From contig JAGASP010000053.1 of assembly GCA_017621695.1 (NCBI GenBank), forward strand, positions 4,787-68,786: a stretch of DNA of 64,000 nucleotides, written 5' to 3'. The notes under the pieces are model-generated. The model did no database searches. It worked only from the letters and a program-made list of their open reading frames with translations, and was not told where the DNA came from. Source of the DNA: Clostridia bacterium. Lineage in GTDB: Bacteria > Bacillota > Clostridia > Oscillospirales > CAG-272. Positions 1,161 through 60,633 of this stretch are shown here, piece after piece. The translations under genes and the position numbers were made by a program. The stretch's first letter is position 1, and every line of letters begins with the position of its first letter.

Positions 1161-3641
1161 TCAGGAGGGTACTTCCTCGATCAGCACCACGGCACTGCTG
1201 TATGCCTCGGGCAGGGTGACGGCATAGCCCACCGTTTTCAGCTCATGGCCCGACACGGTGACCTCGAAGCGGCCCTCAGTGTCGGTGAGCTTGTAGGTGG
1301 CGGAATTCTTCACGCCCTTGAGTCTGAGCGAAAGAGTGTCCTCAGCAGCACCCGCGGGGCGGAACACCTCGAAAAATCCCTTCCCACTTGTGGGGTCGAA
1401 GAACTCCCATGCCATCCACTCCTTTTCGGAGCGGTTCCATTCGGTCAGCAGGTAGTAATCGTCGTCGTAGAAGCCCTTGATCTTCTCCCATTCATCGATG
1501 CAGGACTTCATGAGGTGCCAATCCAGCTCGGAGGAATTCAGATTGTAGCCAAGCACCGGGAAGCTACAGAAGGAGGAGCGCAGACCGTAGCGATCTACTT
1601 TGCTGCAGATGTCAGGACCCACCGCGACGGTTCCGAAGTAGGGCAGCCAGGAGAACAGGGAGGCGTTCATGCTCTGCTTGATGTCGTGCTCCGAATAGGC
1701 TCCGTCGCTCTTGTGGAGAGGAACGGCGCGGCGCATGGTCTCCAGATCGTTCCGTCCGCCGCCCGCGGCACAGGCGTCGATCATCATGTCGGGGAATCGG
1801 GCGATGATGCCGTCGAGGAACCACAGGTAGCCCTGCACGTAGAGATTCTCGGTGATTCCCGTCTGTCCCGCAGGGTCGTTGGCCTGCCACTCGGAGGCGG
1901 GGTACGCGACACCGTAATCCTGGCGGTAGAGGTCGATGTCGCCCTCCTCCAGAATGGTACAAACACGGTTGAGCAGCCACTCTCGAGCCTCGGGATTGCC
2001 GTAATCGATGAGCTTGGTGGAGCTGTTGGGGAGTAACCACTCCTTACGGACGCTGGTCTCTCCGAACAGGGCGGGATCCAGACGCACCACCTCGGGCTCA
2101 AACCACAGAATGGTCTTGGTTCCCTTGCTGTGGGCATAATCCGAAATAGCCTTGAACTTGGTCGGGAAACGGGATTCGTCTACGTACCATGTGCCCGTAG
2201 GTAGCCAAACGTCCAAAGATTGGGTTCCTGTCTTATAGTACCAGCCCGCGTCCATCCAGAAATAGTCCAGGGCAATGCCGTTATCGTGGTAAGTCTTGAT
2301 AGCGTCGATCTGATTCGCCTCATTCGCGCCCACCATTTCGCCATACATCCAGGAGGTGACCGCCGCCACGGCCGGTTCAAAGGCCTCTCCACCGGGTTTC
2401 CGCATATTACAGTCTATATAGAATTTTCTCCAAAGATTGGTGGCGCGGTCGGTATCGTTTCCGCTGTAGAAGAGGAAGCTGGAAAGGGGGGTCCGTATGG
2501 TCTGGCCGGGGAGCAGGTAGGTGTCCAGCTTGTACTGGCCGTCATAGATCCGCAGGTTGCCGTTCCAGGAGTCAAAGCCCGCGCGCCACTGCCCCGGCCA
2601 GCCCACCGCAAAGAACATGCCACCGCTGTTATGGGTCAGCTGGAAGTAGGGGAATCGGCCGTAGGTGCTTCGTCCCGTCTCGTTGTTGATCTCCAGATTC
2701 ATGCCCGAGATATTGATGTCGTAGGGCATATTGGGCATGCTGTCGTAGCCGCCGTCTCCGTAAATGCCCCGCAGATGGGGATTGACGGCCTGGATGGTGT
2801 AGTCGCAGCCGTTGATCTCGGATATGGTCGGGGAATTCTCGGTTCCCGTGTTGGTGAAGTAGACCGTCCACTCGTAGGCGGCGTATTCGGGGTACAGGGT
2901 AGCGACCAGAAGGATCTCCAACGTATCCCCGTAGCCGAAGCGGATGGTGGTGGTTTCGGAGAGATCGGTGGTCTCCACGTTGCGATCCAGCTCCTTGAAG
3001 TCCTTGCCAAAGCCGTGGTATTGGGTGTCCCCGATCTTAAAGGAGGTCGGGAAGGCGGACAGATTCCGAATCAAGGCGCGATAGGCGGCGACAGCATCGC
3101 TTTTTTCTATTGCCGACGCCTCGTTGGTATACAGGGCATCCATGGAGCCGAAGGGGATGATGGGGGTCTTATCGAACATCATCCAGAGTTGCACCTCGCC
3201 CTCGGATTCCCTTCCGCTTTCATACATCTGACCGCAGCTGATGTTCGACGTAAAATGCCAGACACCCGGCAGCTTGCCGTCGGGGCCTCCGCCGCTGTGA
3301 ACCATAAACATGTATTCGCCCGGTGCGAACTGACGGCCAAAGGGGATGTCCCGATGGGCGCAGTCCTGAATATCGGTAATGGACAGGTCGAGCAGGGGCT
3401 CTGCGCCGAGGGTGGTCCGGTAATCGGTATCCCAGCGGTAGACCGACAAGGTACAGTAGGTGCCCGCAACACCCCACGTCGGGAAACCCATGCGGACACC
3501 TGAAAAGGGCGCGTTTACCTGCACCCGAAGTCCGATCCCTCTCTTTGACTTGGGAATCTCCACGGGGATTGGATTTGTTGCTCCATCGATGTACATTTGC
3601 ACGACGGTGGGGTCATCAGAAAAAATATTGTCTGCGTACAT
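1161..3641 (-). CDS. GH36-like (clan GH-D, alpha-galactosidase-like) glycoside hydrolase, cytoplasmic, with an extra ~170-aa N-terminal domain
   Basis: Motifs DYFWMDAGWY, ILWFEPE, LYRQDYG, DACAAGGGRND. The N-domain pattern YPEYAAYEWTVYFTNTGTENS is shared with the paralog at 37322-39223. RBS GGAGGA is present. No signal peptide. Confidence 0.75.
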   Translation of the reverse strand: MYADNIFSDDPTVVQMYIDGATNPIPVEIPKSKRGIGLRVQVNAPFSGVRMGFPTWGVAGTYCTLSVYRWDTDYRTTLGAEPLLDLSITDIQDCAHRDIPFGRQFAPGEYMFMVHSGGGPDGKLPGVWHFTSNISCGQMYESGRESEGEVQLWMMFDKTPIIPFGSMDALYTNEASAIEKSDAVAAYRALIRNLSAFPTSFKIGDTQYHGFGKDFKELDRNVETTDLSETTTIRFGYGDTLEILLVATLYPEYAAYEWTVYFTNTGTENSPTISEINGCDYTIQAVNPHLRGIYGDGGYDSMPNMPYDINISGMNLEINNETGRSTYGRFPYFQLTHNSGGMFFAVGWPGQWRAGFDSWNGNLRIYDGQYKLDTYLLPGQTIRTPLSSFLFYSGNDTDRATNLWRKFYIDCNMRKPGGEAFEPAVAAVTSWMYGEMVGANEANQIDAIKTYHDNGIALDYFWMDAGWYYKTGTQSLDVWLPTGTWYVDESRFPTKFKAISDYAHSKGTKTILWFEPEVVRLDPALFGETSVRKEWLLPNSSTKLIDYGNPEAREWLLNRVCTILEEGDIDLYRQDYGVAYPASEWQANDPAGQTGITENLYVQGYLWFLDGIIARFPDMMIDACAAGGGRNDLETMRRAVPLHKSDGAYSEHDIKQSMNASLFSWLPYFGTVAVGPDICSKVDRYGLRSSFCSFPVLGYNLNSSELDWHLMKSCIDEWEKIKGFYDDDYYLLTEWNRSEKEWMAWEFFDPTSGKGFFEVFRPAGAAEDTLSLRLKGVKNSATYKLTDTEGRFEVTVSGHELKTVGYAVTLPEAYSSAVVLIEEVPS

Positions 3642-3769
3642 AGCGTCCTCCGATATGGGTGATGAATGCTTGGAAATGACAGTTTTATTATATTATTTAC
3701 CTACGCTGATTGCAATGCTCACCGTTGACAAATATTGTGTCATTTTTTGACATTGGCTAACAGTTCTTA

Positions 3770-52845: not shown

Positions 52846-53073
52846 TTACTTGATTTCCTCGCGCTTTGACTTCTCCAAGCCCTTGATCTTTTCCCGCAAG
52901 GAATCCATCTCGCGGTTCAGCTCGGCGGTCTTCTTCCGAAGCTCCGTGATCCTGCTCTCCGCGTCCGCGATCACTTCCTCATGCGCCGCGTCGTTCAGCT
53001 CGGTCACCGTCTTGTCCTTGAACTGTAGCATCTTACGAAGCAGCTCTGCCTTGCGGGTCATCAAGCCTTCCAT
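52846..53073 (-). CDS. Small coiled-coil protein (75 aa), hypothetical
   Basis: Heptad-rich K/E sequence and coding-like composition. Weak RBS. Confidence 0.4.
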   Translation of the reverse strand: MEGLMTRKAELLRKMLQFKDKTVTELNDAAHEEVIADAESRITELRKKTAELNREMDSLREKIKGLEKSKREEIK

Positions 53074-53110
53074 GTCGGCCCTATCTTCCGAAAAATCTTC
53101 ACCAAATCCC

Positions 53111-53139
53111 TTGTAAATTTCATCATCCTATGCTATACT
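53111..53139 (+). promoter_or_regulatory. Promoter, copy 1 of the duplicated cassette
   Basis: TTGTAA, 17 nt, TGcTATACT. The context CCCTTGTAAAT...ATGCTATACT is identical to 55303-55331. Confidence 0.6.
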
Positions 53140-53170
53140 AAACAATAACGGCATTTTATGTTTTTAGCCA

Positions 53171-53205
53171 TATCTTGTATCTTGTATCTCGTATCTTATA
53201 TCTCA
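53171..53205 (+). repeat. Five tandem heptamers TATCTYR in the 5' leader
   Basis: TATCTTG TATCTTG TATCTCG TATCTTA TATCTCA, read directly. Confidence 0.9.
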
Positions 53206-53231
53206 ATAATTCGCACCGAAAGGACACCGCC

Positions 53232-54329
53232 ATGACCATAAATAAAGCCCCCGAAACCATGACCTCCAAGGAACGCGTCCGCCGCACCTTCGCTTTTGAA
53301 AAAACCGACCGTGTCACCATCGGCTACGAGGCCAACGCCGCCATTCACCAAAAGCTCTGCCACGCGCTGGGCATCCGCCCCGACGACTACGAGGGACTGT
53401 ACCGTGCTTTGGGCGTGGACTACCGTAGCATCGGCGCACCCTATGTGGGCAAGCCCCTGCACGCCGTTCCCGAGAACCGCATGGTGGATCAGCTGGAGGG
53501 CTGCATCATGCGTTGGGTAGCGCATGAAACGGGCGGCTACTGGGATTTCTGTGACTTCCCCTTAAAAGATGCCGCCGACGAGCTGTTTGACAGCTTCCCC
53601 GTCCCTGATCCAGACGATTTTGACTACGATGCCGCCCTGGCCGCCGCCAAGAGCTACGGCGGGGAGTACGGTCTTTATATCGGCAACCCCGGTGTGCCCG
53701 ACATCATCAACTCCAACGGCCGCATCATGGGCATGGAGGACGTTCTGTGCCATCTCATGATGGACGATGATGCCGCCATGAATTTTATTCGCCGCCGCGC
53801 GAATTTTCAACTCCGCATGATGGAGCGGCTTCTGGACAAATGCCACGAGCATCTGGATTTCATGTGGCTGGGCGAGGATCTGGGCACCCAGATCGCCCCT
53901 ATGGTCAGCCTGCCCCTGTATCGGGAGCAGATCAAGCCCATCCACAAGCAGTTCGTGGATCTGGCCGCGTCCTATGATCTCCCCGTGATCATCCATTCCT
54001 GCGGCAGCAGCAGTTGGTTCTTTGAGGATTTCATCGAGATGGGCATCCGCGGCGTGGACACCCTCCAGCCCGAGGCGGTCAACATGAGTCCCGCTTATCT
54101 GGCGGAGCATTTCGGCGGACGGCTGAATTTCCGCGGCTGTATCTCCACCGCAGGCCCGCTGGCCTACGGCACAGCGCAGGAGACCGAGAATATTTGCCGC
54201 GAGACCCTCGGCATCATGATGCAGGCGGGCGGCTACCACTTCGCCCCCACCCACGCCATTCAGGACAACAGCCCCGTGGAGAACGTGATTGCCATGTACC
54301 AAGCGGCGCATACTTGGGGAAAATATTGA
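53232..54329 (+). CDS. Uroporphyrinogen-decarboxylase (URO-D)/MtaA-like family protein
   Basis: SKERVRRTFAFEKTDRV at the N-terminus and GGYHFAPTHAIQDNSPVENV near the C-terminus. RBS AAAGGA. Confidence 0.7.
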   Translation: MTINKAPETMTSKERVRRTFAFEKTDRVTIGYEANAAIHQKLCHALGIRPDDYEGLYRALGVDYRSIGAPYVGKPLHAVPENRMVDQLEGCIMRWVAHETGGYWDFCDFPLKDAADELFDSFPVPDPDDFDYDAALAAAKSYGGEYGLYIGNPGVPDIINSNGRIMGMEDVLCHLMMDDDAAMNFIRRRANFQLRMMERLLDKCHEHLDFMWLGEDLGTQIAPMVSLPLYREQIKPIHKQFVDLAASYDLPVIIHSCGSSSWFFEDFIEMGIRGVDTLQPEAVNMSPAYLAEHFGGRLNFRGCISTAGPLAYGTAQETENICRETLGIMMQAGGYHFAPTHAIQDNSPVENVIAMYQAAHTWGKY

Positions 54330-54334
54330 ATGAA

Positions 54335-54378
54335 CGGGAGAAAACTTCTTGAAAGAAGTTTTCTCCCGTTCCCTCTTT
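54335..54378 (+). terminator. Strong rho-independent terminator
   Basis: CGGGAGAAAACTTCTT / AAGAAGTTTTCTCCCG. Confidence 0.8.
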
Positions 54379-54435
54379 CAAGAATCTAAAAAAAAGATTT
54401 ACATTGGAAATCATACAAAAAACAGCCCAAATATC

Positions 54436-54465
54436 TTGACATCCCCCACCACCTCATGCTATAAT
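54436..54465 (+). promoter_or_regulatory. Promoter of the orphan gene 54549-55214
   Basis: TTGACA, 18 nt, TGcTATAAT. Confidence 0.55.
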
Positions 54466-54548
54466 ATTTTCGGGGACGGCACCCATCACAAAAAACAGCA
54501 CAAAAAGTCGGCATACCACAGCCGGCGCACATAAGGGGGAGACACCCA

Positions 54549-55214
54549 TTGGAAAAACACGAAAAAACACCGTCCGAGTTTGACCGTGAGGCACACCGCA
54601 TGATCCAAGTCGAGGACGAAGCCGGCCATCGGTATGAAGCGACCTATCCAAAGAGAGCCATAGGGCTTATCAAAAACGGCAGGGCACGCTTCAAAGACGA
54701 AAGTCAGACCACCATCATATTGACGTGTCCGCCGAAGCATCAAAATGATTTGGAGGATACAACCATGAATGAACATATCCAGCACACAGAAAGCACCGCC
54801 GTCGAGACCAATGCAGTTGAAACTGTAACAGTCGAAGCCACTCCCGCATTGACTGCGAAAGAAGTTTTCGATCAAATCGTTTCTTTGCAAAATCTGATCT
54901 CAGGCGATTACACCAATCCGCTACATTTCCTTTCCGCTACCGTTAACTCCATTTGTTGTGAAAACCAATGGGAGTCGGATCAATTAAAATGCGGAGCTAT
55001 CAACGCGGCCTCCACACCCTACCGCATCCGGGAGGAAACATACCAGCAAATGCTGGCGATCTATCAGCAGATGTACAACGATCTGACCTCTCCCAAAGAA
55101 GCAAGATGCGCCGAACGGAAAGAATTCATGAATTGGGTTCGTGATTGCATCGATGCAACCCAATGCGGTCAAGATCTTCCGGACTTCGAAAAACTCTGGA
55201 AAATGTTCAGCTAA
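54549..55214 (+). CDS. Hypothetical protein (221 aa with the TTG start, alternative ATG at 54600). Small basic N-terminal domain, acidic T/E/V linker, Cys-containing helical C-terminal domain.
   Basis: RBS AAGGGGGAG lies 7 nt upstream of the TTG. The gene has its own promoter and terminator. Confidence 0.6.
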   Translation: MEKHEKTPSEFDREAHRMIQVEDEAGHRYEATYPKRAIGLIKNGRARFKDESQTTIILTCPPKHQNDLEDTTMNEHIQHTESTAVETNAVETVTVEATPALTAKEVFDQIVSLQNLISGDYTNPLHFLSATVNSICCENQWESDQLKCGAINAASTPYRIREETYQQMLAIYQQMYNDLTSPKEARCAERKEFMNWVRDCIDATQCGQDLPDFEKLWKMFS

Positions 55215-55224
55215 TTTTAACATT

Positions 55225-55256
55225 TGCCCCCGCCGCAAGGCGGGGCATTTATTTTC
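55225..55256 (+). terminator. Rho-independent terminator
   Basis: GCCCCCGCC-GCAA-GGCGGGGC followed by ATTTATTTT. Confidence 0.7.
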
Positions 55257-55302
55257 TCTACGAAGAATAGATAAATCCCCTCAGCAATCTTCACAAAAAC
55301 CC

Positions 55303-55331
55303 TTGTAAATTCCACCGTCTTATGCTATACT
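55303..55331 (+). promoter_or_regulatory. Promoter, copy 2 of the duplicated cassette. Its -10 box is part of the palindrome GCTATACT-ATAAATA-AGTATAGC.
   Basis: TTGTAA, 17 nt, TGcTATACT. Confidence 0.6.
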
Positions 55332-55373
55332 ATAAATAAGTATAGCATTTTTTATTTCACAAAAAATATTCGC

Positions 55374-55426
55374 TATCCTATATCTCGTATCTGCCGAGCT
55401 TGCTCGACGCATATCTCAATATCTTA
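55374..55426 (+). repeat. Heptamers (3 plus 2) interrupted by the palindrome GCCGAGCTTGCTCGAC, in the 5' leader of the esterase gene
   Basis: TATCCTA TATCTCG TATCTGC...palindrome...TATCTCA A TATCTTA. Confidence 0.85.
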
Positions 55427-55445
55427 CACAGAAAGGATGCCCACC

Positions 55446-56279
55446 ATGATCTACAACACCTTCACCCTTGATCCCCGCTATCCCGATTGTCTCGTCAATA
55501 CATACATCCACGACGATGTTCCCGAGCTGAATATGCCCCCCCGCCGCGCCATCATCGTCTGCCCCGGCGGCGGCTATCAGTTCCTCTCCGACCGCGAGGC
55601 CGAGCCTGTGGCTCTTCAGTATTTCGCCGCAGGTTTGAACGTGTTCATCCTGCGCTACTCGGTGCAGGAAAAGGCACTGAACGACGCGCCGCTGATCGAG
55701 GCCGCGCTGATGGTCAAGCACATCCGCGAGCACGCCGAGGCGTATCATATCGACCCTGCCTACGTGTTCATCACGGGCTTCTCTGCGGGTGGCCATTGCG
55801 CCGCCATGTGCGGGACGCTGTGGAACACCCCCATCGTCCGCGAGGCTTTGGGCATTGACCGTGGGGAGGCCCCCGAGGGCATCAACCGCCCCACCGCCAC
55901 GGTGCTGTGCTATCCCGTCATCACCGCCAATCCCTTTGCCCATCGCGGCTCCATTGACACCCTCTGCGGTTATCCCAGCGAGGAGACCGACGGGGCGTAT
56001 CACTTCTCGGTGGAGCTTCACGTGGACAAGACCACCTCTCCCGCCTTCATCTGGCACACTTTCAACGACGGTGCGGTGCCCATCCAGAACACCCTGCTCT
56101 ACGCCTCTGCCTTGGCCGATGCGGGCGTGCCCTTTGAGTATCACGTCTACCCCGACGGCGTGCACGGTCTGAGCCTTGCCAACAAAGAGACATGGGTGGG
56201 TCTTGACACCCACTACAACCCCACCTGCGCGGGCTGGATCGAGGATGCCATTCGGTACGTGAAGGAGTTCCAGGCGTAA
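55446..56279 (+). CDS. Alpha/beta-hydrolase esterase (acetyl/feruloyl-esterase-like)
   Basis: AIIVCPGGGY and nucleophile elbow GFSAGGH. The start context CAGAAAGGATGCCCACCATG parallels 53212-53234. Confidence 0.8.
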   Translation: MIYNTFTLDPRYPDCLVNTYIHDDVPELNMPPRRAIIVCPGGGYQFLSDREAEPVALQYFAAGLNVFILRYSVQEKALNDAPLIEAALMVKHIREHAEAYHIDPAYVFITGFSAGGHCAAMCGTLWNTPIVREALGIDRGEAPEGINRPTATVLCYPVITANPFAHRGSIDTLCGYPSEETDGAYHFSVELHVDKTTSPAFIWHTFNDGAVPIQNTLLYASALADAGVPFEYHVYPDGVHGLSLANKETWVGLDTHYNPTCAGWIEDAIRYVKEFQA

Positions 56280-56284
56280 CCAAG

Positions 56285-56333
56285 GAGATACAAAGATACA
56301 AGATACACGCCGAGCAAGCTCGGCAGATACAAG
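56285..56333 (-). repeat. Inverted copy of the heptamer-palindrome element, immediately after the esterase stop codon
   Basis: GAGATAC AAAGATAC AAGATAC ... GCCGAGCAAGCTCGGC AGATACAAG. 56311-56330 is the exact reverse complement of 55387-55406 (20 nt). Confidence 0.85.
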
Positions 56334-56370
56334 AGGTTCACAGCGCGGACGCTGTCATGTTTTCATCATG

Positions 56371-56433
56371 TATCATGTATCTCGTATCTTGTATCTTGTA
56401 TCTTGTATCTCGTATCTCGTATCTTGTATCTTC
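56371..56433 (+). repeat. Nine tandem heptamers TATCWYS in front of the TIM-barrel gene
   Basis: TATCATG TATCTCG TATCTTG TATCTTG TATCTTG TATCTCG TATCTCG TATCTTG TATCTTC. Confidence 0.9.
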
Positions 56434-56461
56434 CCACAATCACACACAAAGGAGAATCATC

Positions 56462-57247
56462 ATGAAGATCGGCGTATGCGCCCCCCTCGACAGACTTCCC
56501 CTGCTCAAAGAGATGGGCTATGACTATATCGAATCCAATTTCAGCTGGCTTGCCGGTCTGAATGAAGAAGACTACCGCAAAAATACAGCTCTCCTGGAAG
56601 CCTCCGGCCTGACCTCCGAAGCCTTCAACGGTTTTTTTCCGGGCAACATCAAGCTGTACGCACCCGACGGCGATCAATCGCCTCAGCTCCGCGATGTCGA
56701 GGCTTTTTGTGAGGGCGCGTTTGCCCGCGCCGCCTCTTGGGGTGGCAAGGTGGCCGTCATCGGCAGCGGCTACGTTCGCAGGATCCCCGAGGGCATGACG
56801 TGGGAGCACTGCGACGAGCAGTTTGCCCGCGTGCTTTCGGTCTGCGGTGAGGTTGGCGCCAAGTACGGTATGAAAGTGACCGTAGAAGCGCTTTCCCGCA
56901 ATGAATGCTCCTACATACACACCATTTCCGAGGGCGCAAAGGTCGCCCGCATGGCAAACCACCCTGCCGTGGGTATGATGGTGGATTTCTATCACCATTG
57001 GAATAACAACGAGGATCTTGCCACCCTGCCCAACAACGCCGACCTCCTCCTTCACGCGCATTACGCCCGTCCTGTGGATCGCAACTATCCCCAGCCCGGA
57101 GATGAGGCCATCCTCGCGGGATGTGTCGAGGCTCTGAAAAATTGCCCCCATGTCGAGCGCATCAGCCTGGAATGTGCCTGGAATCCCAACATTGACGAAG
57201 GTATCCGCACGGCAAGACCGCTGATGGAGATTTTTAAAAGCTTGTAA
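56462..57247 (+). CDS. Sugar-phosphate isomerase/epimerase (xylose-isomerase-like TIM barrel)
   Basis: MKIGVCAPLDRLPLLKEMGYDYIESNF and family-typical length. RBS AAAGGAG. Confidence 0.75.
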   Translation: MKIGVCAPLDRLPLLKEMGYDYIESNFSWLAGLNEEDYRKNTALLEASGLTSEAFNGFFPGNIKLYAPDGDQSPQLRDVEAFCEGAFARAASWGGKVAVIGSGYVRRIPEGMTWEHCDEQFARVLSVCGEVGAKYGMKVTVEALSRNECSYIHTISEGAKVARMANHPAVGMMVDFYHHWNNNEDLATLPNNADLLLHAHYARPVDRNYPQPGDEAILAGCVEALKNCPHVERISLECAWNPNIDEGIRTARPLMEIFKSL

Positions 57248-57675
57248 ATTGTTGCGGAAGCCAACGCTCGCGTGACACGCGCCAAGACGAGGGTGCAGCA
57301 CCCGAGGGGGAGTATAGCGGTAAATTGTTGTTTAGCGGAGTAAACTCCTAACCTTTTGGGTGCCCGATGGTCAAAGGGGGTTCTGGGGGCGAAGCCCCCA
57401 GAACCTATGAGAACGGCCGGCGGTTTCGGGGGCGGCCTTGAGCGCCCTGAATAAAAACAATTTTGTTTTGCGAAGCAAAACTTCCTTGTCCCGCAAAGAG
57501 AATTTCGTTTCTTCAAAAAACGAATCAACACCCATTTTGTCTCTTGAAAATTTTCTTGCGGCTTCCGCCGCGCGCCGAGGCGCTCACGGCCGCCCTCGGC
57601 ACTGCCGGCCACCATCGTAAGGTGCAGGGGCTGCGCCCCTGCACCCCCTTAGGCCGCTAAACAACCGTTTACTTT
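57245..57675. mobile_element. MITE-like, highly palindromic GC-rich intergenic element (non-coding)
   Basis: GGTAAATTGTTGTTTAGCGG (57319-57338) pairs with the inverted CCGCTAAACAACCGTTTAC (57654-57672). Internal perfect hairpins lie at 57379-57405 and 57621-57645. An extra GTAAATTGTTG copy starts at 57245. Confidence 0.45.
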
Positions 57676-57693
57676 TTGTCAAAGGAGTCACAT

Positions 57694-58839
57694 ATGCAAA
57701 ACGTACATGAAAATCTTCTCCACGTCACCAAATACGAGGTGCTGGACAAGCTCCCCGACCTCTTTACCTTCGACAACGGAGATCCCGTAAAAACCCCCGA
57801 GGATTGGAGCAAGCGCCGTACCGAGATCTACAAAACCGCCGTAGAGCTGCAATACGGTACCCTGCCCCCTGCCCCCGAATTTTTGGAGGTGGAGCCCCTT
57901 TATATCGGTGCCAAGGCTCACTCTTACCGCATTCATACCGGCACGAAAGCCCGTCCCGTCAGCTTTCTCATGAAGCTGATCCTGCCCGCATCAGGGAACA
58001 ACTTCCCTGCCATCGTGGACGGCGATATGTGCTTCCCCTATCATCTGAACAACGATTATCTCGCCGCCGCCACCGACGAGGGCGTGGCCTGGGTGTTCTT
58101 TGACCGCACTGAGCTCGCGCACGACATCCAAGGCGAGGGTCGCCGCAAGGGTCAGCTGTACGACACTTACCCCGACTGCACCTTCGGCGCTCTGGGCGCG
58201 TGGGCGTGGGGCTATTCCCGTTGCGTGGATGCCCTGGAGATCATCTGCCAAAAGCAGGACAAGCCCCTCATCGACCTCTCTCTCATCGCCTTTTCGGGTC
58301 ACTCCCGTGGCGGCAAGACCGCCGCATTGGCGGGAGCTGTGGATCAGCGCGCCGCCGTGGTCAATCCCAACGAGACCTGCGCAGGGGCTTGCGGCTGTTA
58401 CCGCATCCATATGGAGGGCTACTGCGACGGCATCCCTCCCTTCCGCTCCGAGACCTTGCGGGATCTCTGGAACAATTTTTCCTTCTGGATGGGTCCCGAC
58501 CTTGGCGACTACGCCGACAGAGAAGCCGAGCTTCCCTTTGACGCCCATTTCTTGAAGGCTCTTGTGGCTCCCCGCGTGCTCTTCGTTTCCGAGGCGGCAG
58601 GAGATATCTGGTCCAATCCCGTCGGATCCTGGATGACCTCCATGGCCGCGCAAAAGGCATATGATTTTCTGGGTGTACCCGAAAATCTTTACTGGTATTT
58701 CCGCGAGGGGACACATTTCCACCACGTTCAGGACGTAAAGATGCTGGTCAATATCATCAGGCGGCAGAGAGATCCCTCTGTCCCCATGGCCGAAGGATTT
58801 TTCAAAACTCCTTTCCCGCCCTTTGACCCGATCTACTGA
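57694..58839 (+). CDS. CE15-like (glucuronoyl-esterase-type) alpha/beta hydrolase
   Basis: FSGHSRGGKTAALAGAVDQR resembles the CE15 GCSRxGK nucleophile motif. RBS AAAGGAG. Confidence 0.65.
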   Translation: MQNVHENLLHVTKYEVLDKLPDLFTFDNGDPVKTPEDWSKRRTEIYKTAVELQYGTLPPAPEFLEVEPLYIGAKAHSYRIHTGTKARPVSFLMKLILPASGNNFPAIVDGDMCFPYHLNNDYLAAATDEGVAWVFFDRTELAHDIQGEGRRKGQLYDTYPDCTFGALGAWAWGYSRCVDALEIICQKQDKPLIDLSLIAFSGHSRGGKTAALAGAVDQRAAVVNPNETCAGACGCYRIHMEGYCDGIPPFRSETLRDLWNNFSFWMGPDLGDYADREAELPFDAHFLKALVAPRVLFVSEAAGDIWSNPVGSWMTSMAAQKAYDFLGVPENLYWYFREGTHFHHVQDVKMLVNIIRRQRDPSVPMAEGFFKTPFPPFDPIY

Positions 58840-58850
58840 AAGGAACCGAC

Positions 58851-59396
58851 ATGAAGCTCTACATCGTTCGACACGGACAATCGGCATGGAACGCAGAGCA
58901 TCTTGTCTGCGGCTCGACAGACGCGCCCCTTACCGAAAAAGGGCACGCACAGGCCGCAGAAGTCGCCCGTACCATTGCCGAAATTCACAAAGAACATCCC
59001 ATTGATCTCATCATAGCGTCTCCCCTGCAACGGGCGTTGGATACAGGCCGTGCCATTCAGGTCGCCTGCGGAGACATCCCGCTCATCACCGACGATCGCA
59101 TTCGGGAGATCGACTTTGGGGAAAGCGAAGGTCTTTCCACCCGTGATCAGGATTTTCAGAACAGAAAAGCTCAATTCCCCTACGTTCACGGCGAGGGGGA
59201 GTCTATGCTTCGTTTTGTTCATCGCGTCTACAGCTTTCTTGACGATATCCGTGTGCGCTATGCCGACAAAACGGTGCTCCTCGCCTGTCACAACGGCATC
59301 ATCCGCGTCGCGGAATCCTACGTGCATAGCATGACCAACGAGGAATTTATGAGCTACGTTGTCAAAAATGCAACTGTATCTCAATATGACTTATAA
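58851..59396 (+). CDS. Histidine-phosphatase superfamily protein (phosphoglycerate-mutase-like)
   Basis: MKLYIVRHGQSAWN (RHG motif). 181 aa. Confidence 0.85.
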   Translation: MKLYIVRHGQSAWNAEHLVCGSTDAPLTEKGHAQAAEVARTIAEIHKEHPIDLIIASPLQRALDTGRAIQVACGDIPLITDDRIREIDFGESEGLSTRDQDFQNRKAQFPYVHGEGESMLRFVHRVYSFLDDIRVRYADKTVLLACHNGIIRVAESYVHSMTNEEFMSYVVKNATVSQYDL

Positions 59397-59409
59397 GGAG
59401 TGTCCCATC

Positions 59410-60633
59410 ATGTACCGCAAATTATTTACCGCTGTTTTATTCATTCTGTGTCTCGCAACCGCCGCAGTCGCCTGTAGCCAACAAGAAGAACCGCTTGCGT
59501 CCGAAAGCGACGTAAGCTCCGAGACGACCGTCGCCGTCACCGAAGCTGAAACCGAGATCTTCCCCGAAACGCAGGCAGAAACCGAAGCCGCCACCGAAAC
59601 GGAAAACAAGACCGAAACAGAGACTGAAACCGAGATCGGAACAGAAGCCATCACCGAGGAGGAAACGACCGTGACCGTCATCTACGAAACCGTTCAGAAT
59701 CCCATCACCCCCACAGGCGCTGACCCATGGGTTACGCGCCACGGCGACAAATACTACTACTGCTATTCCAGCCCCGTCTGGTTCTTTGGCGGTGTTGGTG
59801 TGGCCGAGATCCCCTCCATCGACAAGGTCAGCGCCGAGGGAGGCAGTCAGGTCTACACCGCTCCCGCCGAGGAGGGCGCTGACCTGTCCCACTCCTTCAA
59901 CTACTGGGCACCCGAGCTGCACTACATCCAAGGTGCGTGGTACATCTACGTGGCCTGCGACGACGGCAACAACGAGACCCACCGTATGTATGTCCTGAAG
60001 GGCACAACACAGAACCCCACCGATCCCTTTGAGTACGTGGGGCAGATCACCGACCCCACCAATAAGTGGGCCATCGATGGCTCGGTTATGGAAATCGGCG
60101 GCGAACTGTACTTCATCTGGTCGGGCTGGGAGGGTGACGTCAACGTAGCCCAGCATATCTACATCGCCCACATGAGCAACCCCTGGACCATCGACAGCGA
60201 GCGGGTCATGCTCTCCACCCCCGAGTACGCCTGGGAGAAGAACGGCGATCCCCTCATCAACGAAGGCCCCACAGCCCTCCAGCACAACGGTAAGACCTTC
60301 ATCGTGTACTCCGCCTCGGGCAGTTGGACGGATGACTACTGCCTCGGTATGCTGACCCTCACGGGGGACAATCCCATGGATCCCACCTGCTGGGCAAAGT
60401 CGGACAGCCCTGTGTTTGAGAAAAGATTCGGTACCTGCTTCGGTCCGGGTCATGCCTCCTTCACCACCGCCGTGGACGGCAGTGTCTGGATGATCTACCA
60501 CGGCAACCTCCAGTCGGGCACAGGCTGGGAGGGTCGCTCCATCTGGATCGCCCCCGTAACCTTTGATGAAAACGGAATCCCGGATTTCGGACAGCCCCAA
60601 AAAGAAGTGCAATTCCCTGTAGCAATTCAATAA
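59410..60633 (+). CDS. GH43-family glycoside hydrolase, lipoprotein with acidic ETE linker
   Basis: Lipobox AAVAC. NYWAPELHYIQGAWYIYVA, GPTALQHNGKTFIVYSASG. RBS AAGGAG. Confidence 0.85.
   Translation: MYRKLFTAVLFILCLATAAVACSQQEEPLASESDVSSETTVAVTEAETEIFPETQAETEAATETENKTETETETEIGTEAITEEETTVTVIYETVQNPITPTGADPWVTRHGDKYYYCYSSPVWFFGGVGVAEIPSIDKVSAEGGSQVYTAPAEEGADLSHSFNYWAPELHYIQGAWYIYVACDDGNNETHRMYVLKGTTQNPTDPFEYVGQITDPTNKWAIDGSVMEIGGELYFIWSGWEGDVNVAQHIYIAHMSNPWTIDSERVMLSTPEYAWEKNGDPLINEGPTALQHNGKTFIVYSASGSWTDDYCLGMLTLTGDNPMDPTCWAKSDSPVFEKRFGTCFGPGHASFTTAVDGSVWMIYHGNLQSGTGWEGRSIWIAPVTFDENGIPDFGQPQKEVQFPVAIQ

Follow-up and report, generated by a model that had tools for sequence, protein, structure and literature searches.

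The stretch analysed here (the window) comprises 64,000 nucleotides (nt) of contig JAGASP010000053.1 from an uncultured gut Clostridia bacterium of the group CAG-272. Overall it reads as a glycan-utilisation region with several AraC regulators among the remaining genes, and in three places the presumably transcribed spacers of its sugar-utilisation cluster carry tandem arrays of the heptanucleotide (heptad) TATCTYR. We designate these array a, element b and element c. They probably represent a dispersed, mosaic-like heptad repeat family akin to miniature inverted-repeat transposable elements (MITEs), with copies that were recently inserted (b and c) or duplicated together with a promoter (a). 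The features concerned are listed below; L numbers denote loci in other genomes and assemblies.

53094–53139, + strand: promoter block copy 1, before the URO-D gene (AATCTTCACC..TTGTAA-17-TGcTATACT); differs from the native URO-D promoter of L148 and L149
53171–53205, + strand: array a in the 5′ leader of URO-D, with five direct TATCTYR units and no inverted partner; ends 26 nt before the ATG (53232)
53232–54329: URO-D-family protein
54549–55214: open reading frame (ORF) of 204–221 amino acids with its own strong promoter (54436–54465), between URO-D and esterase
55286–55331, + strand: promoter block copy 2, the ancestral esterase promoter, at the same position in L130, L132, L148 and L149 (alignment A2)
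55374–55426, + strand: element b in the esterase 5′ leader, reading TATCCTA TATCTCG TATCT, palindrome GCCGAGCTTGCTCGAC, TATCTCA A TATCTTA
55446–56279: BD-FAE esterase
56284–56336, + strand: element c, palindrome-bearing arm, reading GGAGATA CAAAGATA CAAGATA CAC, GCCGAGCAAGCTCGGC (56309–56324), AGATACAAGAGG
56340–56364, + strand: element c, loop, with a small GC hairpin (56340–56355) and then a short T-run
56365–56433, + strand: second arm of element c (array c), with 9.7 direct heptads; its end lies 28 nt before the ATG of the TIM-barrel gene (56462)
56462–57247: xylose-isomerase-like TIM-barrel protein

An earlier sequence-only reading had reported TATCTYR arrays in three places, and all three were recovered (53171–53205, 55374–55426 and 56365–56433, with inverted copies at 56284–56336). 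Tandem Repeats Finder describes array c as a period-7 repeat of 9.7 copies (score 101) and reports a further period-7 array of 4.7 copies. The dimer TATCTYRTATCTYR, allowing at most one mismatch, has 14 matches in the window against 0.38 expected, far above chance, and every one of them lies within the three array places. The earlier impression that the unit occurs nowhere else in the 64 kb thus holds for dimers, although two isolated single matches to GTATCTYG lie outside the arrays. In element b, three units (55374–55394) are followed by a 16-nt palindrome (55393–55408) that cuts the last of them, and by two further units (55412–55426). Element c begins 5 nt past the esterase stop codon, and its inverted units (56284–56305 and 56325–56336) flank a second copy of the palindrome (56309–56324). 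Searches against Rfam 15 gave no window match at gathering score; at E ≤ 1, the segment 52800–56700 gave two chance-level matches only, far below gathering scores and away from the arrays.

Two statements about the setting of the arrays required revision. All arrays had been placed between a −10 box and a ribosome-binding site (RBS), which is correct for a and b, downstream of promoters, but not for c. Because no promoter is detectable upstream of array c and the esterase–TIM junction is only 13–37 nt long in relatives, we regard it as intercistronic. Likewise, there are three array-bearing units, but they are not strictly consecutive, since the ORF at 54549–55214, with its own promoter, intervenes.

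Promoter duplication and probable insertion history

A consensus scan recovered the near-identical promoters proposed earlier at 53111–53139 and 55303–55331 (TTGTAA-17-TATACT with an upstream TG, TGcTATACT), and their likeness extends beyond the hexamers. The 26-nt motif AATCTTCACMAAAWCCCTTGTAAATT occurs in the window only at 53094 and 55286 (0 expected), and an alignment of the two upstream regions that runs from promoter through leader to heptads has 82% identity in about 150 columns (alignment A1). The true duplication spans about 115 nt of promoter and leader. URO-D orthologues with another promoter and without heptads still have the RBS context cccgaaaggacaccgccATG, so the RBS is not part of the duplicated cassette. 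The proposed cassette therefore stands for promoter and leader, whereas the similar RBS contexts are ancestral to each gene.

We collected orthologous loci via the esterase and URO-D proteins; identities given for these loci are amino-acid identities of their esterases to that of the window. Element b is present with its palindrome in L149 (96.8%) and, as four to five units without the palindrome, in L148 (95.7%). It is cleanly absent from L130 (91.7%), L131 (88.8%), L132 (86.3%) and L123–L129 (at most 84%), in all of which promoter and RBS are retained. With or without b, the relatives in alignment A2 keep the common promoter, a palindrome over the −10 box and the RBS. Filled and empty sites can therefore be told apart, as is usual for MITEs: b is found at 95.7% identity and above only, and c only in the window lineage. 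The URO-D genes of L148 and L149 have a different promoter (TTGAAA-17-TGcTATACT) and a short plain leader that lacks heptads, followed by the same RBS, which confines array a to the window lineage as well. Array a is closest to the palindrome-free L148 version of b (alignment A2). The simplest history of a would be the copying of about 115 nt of esterase promoter and leader to a position before URO-D. The esterase–TIM junction measures 182 nt in the window, compared with 13 nt in L149 and 21–37 nt in L123–L129. Against these relatives, whose junctions measure 13–37 nt, element c is an inserted stretch of about 150 nt.

L131 and L148 hold quite different repeat-rich inserts at this same junction. 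In L131 (2093–2378) the insert is about 240 nt long and alternates AATCATG and CATGAATT motifs with small GC hairpins; it begins with AAATTGGGGTTTGGCGG, and a nearby CCCAATTTGAAATC also occurs in the 'empty' junction of L124.

The distribution across relatives speaks against the arrays being a dedicated cis-regulatory element of three transcription units, as had been supposed: orthologues keep promoter and RBS without arrays, and elsewhere the module adjoins unrelated genes. Nor is the position of the arrays conserved beyond the closest relatives, with b absent at 91.7% and below and a and c confined to the window lineage. As far as these comparisons go, the arrays are neither a regulon-specific operator nor a conserved riboregulator of these genes. 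Comparison with the relatives indicates how the copies arose. Element b was gained by the esterase 5′ leader not long ago, in an ancestor of the closest relatives, and later changed in unit number and palindrome presence. The stretch of esterase promoter and leader that carried heptads was copied before URO-D as array a, displacing the native promoter. Element c has two arms and is an insertion of its own, at an operon junction that used to be very short.

Two other features of the promoter copies deserve mention. The block AATCTTCAC-N-AAA-N-CCCTTGTAAATT lies upstream of and overlaps the −35 box in both copies (53094–53119 and 55286–55311), and it recurs in the esterase promoters of relatives down to about 86% identity. 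Judged by this conservation, it appears a better candidate than the heptads for a real regulator-binding site of the cluster. The −10 box of the esterase promoter is overlapped by a palindrome with 10-bp arms, ATGCTATACT-N7-AGTATAGCAT, followed by a T-run (55322–55348). In L130, L132, L148 and L149 its arms are conserved and its spacer is variable; the URO-D copy has a degenerate version. The palindrome may act as an operator or may terminate read-through from upstream.

The spacer between MatE and URO-D also differs from that of relatives. It holds a 75-amino-acid, coiled-coil-like ORF on the minus strand (52846–53073) without a solid Pfam match and is twice as long as in L148 and L149, neither of which has the ORF. 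The ORF and the promoter duplication were gained in one and the same lineage. In the relatives, the spacer (2600–2700 in L148, 4820–4920 in L149) contains a conserved stretch, aaatcggttagagta(a/g)cgg(a/g)t(g/a)a(a/c)tccgtgacctctggggataagctcccggccgattc, which the window lacks and which resembles a small structured RNA.

A probable dispersed repeat family in gut Clostridia

A scan for (TATCTYG)3, which covered the contigs of a single genome for each species, gave at least 119 loci. Among the matches listed, about 24 lie in gut or rumen metagenome-assembled genomes (MAGs) of Clostridia, Oscillospiraceae or Eubacteriales, and several gut Clostridia MAGs have two to five elements each (five in JAZNUO01 and three in JAFQOC01, again among the matches listed). 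The architecture is recurrent: (CRAGATA)n, often followed by CAC-GCCGAGCnnGCTCGGC, further CRAGATA units, a variable loop and (TATCTYG)n, where GCCGAGCnnGCTCGGC is a 16–17-nt GC palindrome often present in one arm. Elements typically start at or just after a stop codon or by a divergent start, adjoin unrelated genes, and end 16–75 nt before a Shine–Dalgarno sequence and ATG. A module-specific pattern identified 14 further metagenome contigs with unrelated flanking genes, in one case following a GroEL-like C-terminus. Many intergenic sets per genome are thus seen in the MAGs, and the metagenome loci add further cases beside unrelated genes.

Several details point to a shared ancestry of these elements. 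The unit order GAGATAC AAAGATA CAAGATA CAC plus palindrome is common to the window, L016, L113 and L134–L144, and the palindrome arm of element c is 94% identical to L113 over 51 nt. Because this irregular unit order recurs across species, we attribute it to common descent of the module and not to independent slippage. The loops vary in sequence among family members. In every paired Clostridial element seen, CRAGATA precedes TATCTYG with the units reading outward, which is what the inverted-end symmetry of a transposon-like element predicts.

Matches outside Clostridia (Planctomycetota, Omnitrophota, Chloroflexota, Vibrio and others) lie mostly among other heptamer arrays. In viral contigs, TATCTYG and permuted, composition-matched heptamers are about equally frequent (13 loci versus 19, 11 and at least 120). 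For both reasons we read the non-Clostridial matches as a background of generic heptamer microsatellites and do not regard TATCTYG as a heptamer that is special across phyla. In Omnitrophota, Acidobacteriota, Saccharibacteria and others (L005, L067, L081, L089 and L104 are among the non-Clostridial examples), TATCTTG triplets sit inside longer 7-nt-periodic runs in which only the last bases are constant, TTG or CG (NNNNTTG, NNNNNCG). Nitrospirota and Planctomycetota have TATCTCG arrays followed by CGAGATACGCTTCACG-type inverted units.

A full-length copy of the family measures about 158 nt, has discrete borders and is bounded by terminal inverted repeats some 17 nt long. L139 is 95.6% identical to L134 over 160 nt while their flanks are unrelated; it is 99% identical to L136, 93% to L137, and 80% over the same 158 nt to L091, from which the palindrome is missing as a clean indel. 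Among these relatives (L139, L134, L136 and L137), small discrete near-identical copies thus occupy different loci, as MITEs do. The termini AAATTGCAGTTTTACGG and TTCGACAAACCCAAATTT are mutually inverted, and the aligned borders read AAATTG(CA/GG)GTTTT(A/T)CGG ... TTCGACAAACCCAAATTT, a type we write as AAATTG-NN-GTTT-NN-CGG. Element c matches the inner 117 nt of an L139-type element at 80%. No Rfam match was found in the heptad elements of L139, L134 and L091.

In the window, the only pair of terminal inverted repeats of this type belongs to a different element, 353 nt long (57320–57672). It fills the spacer between the TIM-barrel gene and the first of three downstream genes.

57676–58839: glucuronyl esterase
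58851–59396: His_Phos_1 phosphatase-family protein
59359–60633: GH43 glycoside hydrolase

The 353-nt element has 24-nt inverted termini, GTAAATTGTTGTTTAGCGGAGTAA and TTAGGCCGCTAAACAACCGTTTAC, and at the same TIM–glucuronyl-esterase junction L148 and L149 hold other inserts with termini of the same kind. Such termini also bound the inserts of L131 and L148 and an element of L098. Since termini of one type enclose varied cargo, they point to a population of small terminal-inverted-repeat elements in the operon junctions of this lineage, of which the heptad type would be one content.

The L098 element (3341–3645) has these termini around internal hairpins and includes two inverted Rfam matches to Gut-1 (RF01706; scores of 57 and 53 bits, gathering score 50). 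Gut-1, by description a non-coding RNA confined to the gut, may be part of a MITE-like repeat.

The repeat family weighed against other readings

The best explanation of these comparisons, in our view, is that the arrays belong to a non-coding repeat family of gut Oscillospiraceae and other Clostridia, built of two inverted heptad arms, (CRAGATA)n ... (TATCTYG)n. Several points weigh against it. Arrays a, b and c all lack the terminal inverted repeats of the full-length relatives. No consistent target-site duplication was found in the flanks of L139, L134, L091 and L141 or at the filled and empty sites of b, and no transposase, RAYT or other mobilising gene occurs among the approximately 49 ORFs of the window; we infer movement from the contrast between filled and empty sites and from the presence of near-identical copies at separate loci. 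Because contamination of MAG bins is possible, the count of several copies per genome is not airtight. The arms are not mirror images either: the palindrome arm has 49 CAAGATA to one CGAGATA, and the other arm 37 TATCTTG to 16 TATCTCG. Transcription of the arrays and any effect on expression are presumed. Finally, all solo arrays beside a start codon point toward it, which makes an orientation-tied function of solo arrays possible; these amount to about four independent cases only. We also considered the arm asymmetry as a G·U versus A·C marker of the transcribed strand and set this aside, as arm lengths and pairing registers are ambiguous; it neither supports nor excludes selection for pairing.

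All three copies presumably lie in transcribed spacers and would be carried in mRNAs. The RNA of element c (56277–56470) has a minimum free energy of −61.6 kcal/mol, with z = −6.2 relative to shuffles. In the predicted hairpin, the inverted arm (56284–56336) is paired with roughly five units at the start of array c, and the palindrome folds into a hairpin at the side; such a stem–loop could serve as a processing or stability site. The RNA of element b is structured at chance level (z = +0.4), and the leader with array a is less structured than all 200 shuffles (z = +2.57), so that a and b might add an unstructured pyrimidine-rich stretch before an unchanged Shine–Dalgarno sequence.

Repeat copy number, whose comparison across strains had been suggested earlier, does vary. 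L120 and L121 are two independent assemblies, with no substitution relative to the window over 8.8 kb and one over 5.2 kb, respectively. In both, array c is longer by exactly 7 nt (GTATCTT) and arrays a and b are unchanged, so tract length is polymorphic; at b, unit number differs among close relatives. Replication slippage would alter array length, fastest in the longest array. The same variant bears on coding potential. The arrays are open in all six reading frames, and we considered translation through array c. The only in-frame upstream ATG, at 56357, has no Shine–Dalgarno sequence, and the 7-nt variant of L120 and L121 would break the frame from there; we therefore take the arrays to be non-coding.

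Length polymorphism is also what the sequence-only reading had expected of a contingency repeat of the hmw1A type, in which array length in the 5′ untranslated or intercistronic RNA grades downstream expression. A long hairpin would be cut by RNase III and slippage would act as a reversible switch, a route compatible with a mobile-element origin. The one-unit difference in array c, the varying unit number at b and the predicted long hairpin of c, made of repeats and reminiscent of the hmw1A 5′ hairpin (PMC12721329), all fit this proposal. However, slippage is to be expected in any tract of about ten units, so that polymorphism by itself does not argue for a function, and arrays a and b (at most five units) are invariant in L120 and L121. 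The genes are cytoplasmic-looking sugar-metabolism enzymes, neither surface-exposed nor involved in host interaction, and in other genomes the same elements stand beside housekeeping genes and gene 3′ ends. The polymorphism and the hairpin thus support that proposal in part; as an account of the arrays we consider it rather unlikely.

The other proposal made earlier was a cis element read by a multimeric factor, on the analogy of Bacillus HutP. The HutP anti-terminator needs UAG triplets, in two sets of three, before a terminator. The resemblance is limited to the 7-nt spacing of a short motif in leader RNA: there is no TAG in TATCTYR, no terminator follows array a or b, and the window has no HutP match. 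Since the units contain neither UAG nor GAG triplets, the analogy with HutP or TRAP fails, and with the arrays absent from sister leaders and the module beside unrelated genes, we abandon this option in its specific form. A factor that reads the heptads, if it exists, would be global or element-related and not specific to these three units. In a broader form, the leaders would offer sites to ribosomal protein S1, a cold-shock protein or a new oligomer of the TRAP/HutP kind whose subunits each read one unit, in a global post-transcriptional network like that proposed for the TAACTGA repeats of Beggiatoaceae. About 25 elements have sense arrays 16–55 nt upstream of a Shine–Dalgarno sequence and ATG, array a is predicted to be unusually single-stranded, and forward heptamer repeats near start codons of unrelated genes have a precedent (PMC4679880). 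But sense orientation is not independent evidence, because two arms that read outward produce it without any function. We tried start-codon orientation as a sign of RNA function and dropped it: ORF-based scoring is noisy with arrays open in six frames, and symmetry suffices. Many arms, moreover, abut stop codons or convergent gene ends, the window has no HutP- or TRAP-like gene, the units lack UAG and GAG triplets as stated, and the orthologues work without arrays. We hold this reading to be quite improbable.

The heptads might instead be a DNA operator or centromere for a ribbon-helix-helix (RHH) protein such as omega (ParB) of pSM19035, with one dimer per 7-bp unit, acting as a roadblock downstream of the promoter or as a site for a protein that moves the element. 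Omega binds direct and inverted 7-bp arrays (PMC9499535); both orders occur here with 3–10 units, and the outward-reading arms resemble subterminal binding sites of transposons. Yet TATCTYG does not fit WATCACW, a and b lie downstream of promoters and not over them, c is promoterless, and the window has no RHH, omega or ParA gene, so the arrays lack what defines an omega or RHH operator. Elements with the same terminal inverted repeats hold quite different internal repeats, so the heptads are not needed for recognition of element ends, and this reading seems to us very improbable. That the arrays are independent microsatellites born in place by slippage, with no common origin and no element, is hardly credible: heptamer simple-sequence repeats are generally over-represented in bacterial intergenic DNA, and both the viral-contig counts and the many non-Clostridial matches amid other heptamer arrays would suit such an origin, but the palindrome and irregular unit order are common to the window copies and other species, a and b are homologous over about 150 nt including flanks, full-length relatives have sharp common borders, and identities of 94–99% exclude a chance origin of the shared non-heptad parts.

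Relation to known repeats and regulatory sites

Knowledge of dispersed heptanucleotide repeats goes back to 1990, with the cyanobacterial STRR. Bacterial intergenic DNA is generally enriched in heptamer repeats (Mrazek 2007, as cited in PMC4692102); among the GGGAATC repeats of Xanthomonas inverted pairs occur, and close relatives differ in these repeats (PMC4692102). In Beggiatoaceae, Cyanobacteria and Bacteroidetes, TAACTGA repeats stand mostly in forward orientation just upstream of the start codons of unrelated genes, and binding of S1, Csp or CsrA has been proposed for them (PMC4679880). With these three families the TATCTYG arrays share tandem 7-nt units confined to intergenic DNA, many sets per genome beside unrelated genes, a frequent forward orientation near start codons, occasional inverted pairs, and variation in length and sequence among close relatives. 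They differ in unit sequence and in their host group, gut Oscillospiraceae and other Clostridia. Whereas TAACTGA usually replaces the Shine–Dalgarno sequence, TATCTYG arrays leave a canonical one 16–55 nt downstream. They are also part of a composite that contains a GC palindrome and, where the copy is full-length, ends in terminal inverted repeats; we know of no such composite described for another heptad family. No report from bacteria emerged when the literature was searched for the exact repeat.

Comparable mosaic or MITE-like repeats include the Correia elements of Neisseria, RUP and BOX of pneumococcus, and REP/BIME of enterobacteria. Like these, the family is small, non-coding, multicopy, modular and hairpin-forming, with filled and empty sites among relatives, and it is inserted in intergenic or intercistronic spacers where it would be co-transcribed with its neighbours. 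It departs from them in its arms of expandable tandem heptads, in window copies that lack terminal inverted repeats, and in that neither a target-site duplication nor a partner transposase was identified.

Two regulatory systems offer partial parallels. The hmw1A (ATCTTTC)n tract is transcribed into a long hairpin that RNase III processes (PMC12721329). As at hmw1A and hmw2A, the unit here is a pyrimidine-rich heptad with an ATCTT core between promoter and start codon, presumably transcribed, predicted to form a long hairpin that involves the repeat, and changed in number by slippage. The hmw hairpin, however, has a G-rich non-repeat partner arm at a single pair of adhesin loci, whereas here the partner arm consists of inverted heptads and the family is dispersed beside metabolic genes. 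Omega of pSM19035 recognises 7–10 WATCACW heptads, direct or inverted, of which at least four must be contiguous (PMC9499535). Our arrays resemble its parS sites in contiguous 7-bp units, direct and inverted, 4–10 per site; omega sites are plasmid-borne, overlap promoters and accompany omega and delta genes, none of which was seen here, and they have another consensus. By analogy, then, the TATCTYG family has the general features of dispersed heptamer repeats, element c resembles the hmw mechanism, and the definitions of HutP and omega sites do not fit. The best reading is a new member of the STRR, TAACTGA and MITE kind, which is known but poorly understood.

A bolder conjecture, which we judge improbable, is that these Oscillospiraceae have a dedicated multimeric protein that binds nucleic acid and reads the heptads as its recognition code, each 7-nt unit engaging one subunit or dimer. 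If true, the repeat family would spread binding sites into leaders and operon junctions. Sugar-utilisation and housekeeping genes would thereby come under a post-transcriptional or roadblock network that is carried by a mobile element and tuned by array length, and there would be a general reason why it is heptanucleotide repeats that populate bacterial intergenic DNA.

For annotation, the locus illustrates that neighbouring genes can have a conspicuous 'promoter-leader motif' in common as the result of a recent repeat insertion and a local duplication, and not as a regulon signal. The family ties heptad arrays to discrete terminal-inverted-repeat elements and to dated insertions in one operon, and so suggests a concrete, testable route by which heptanucleotide repeats may disperse. 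In this uncultured gut commensal, leader repeats of glycan-utilisation genes differ in length between near-identical contigs and could thereby tune expression.

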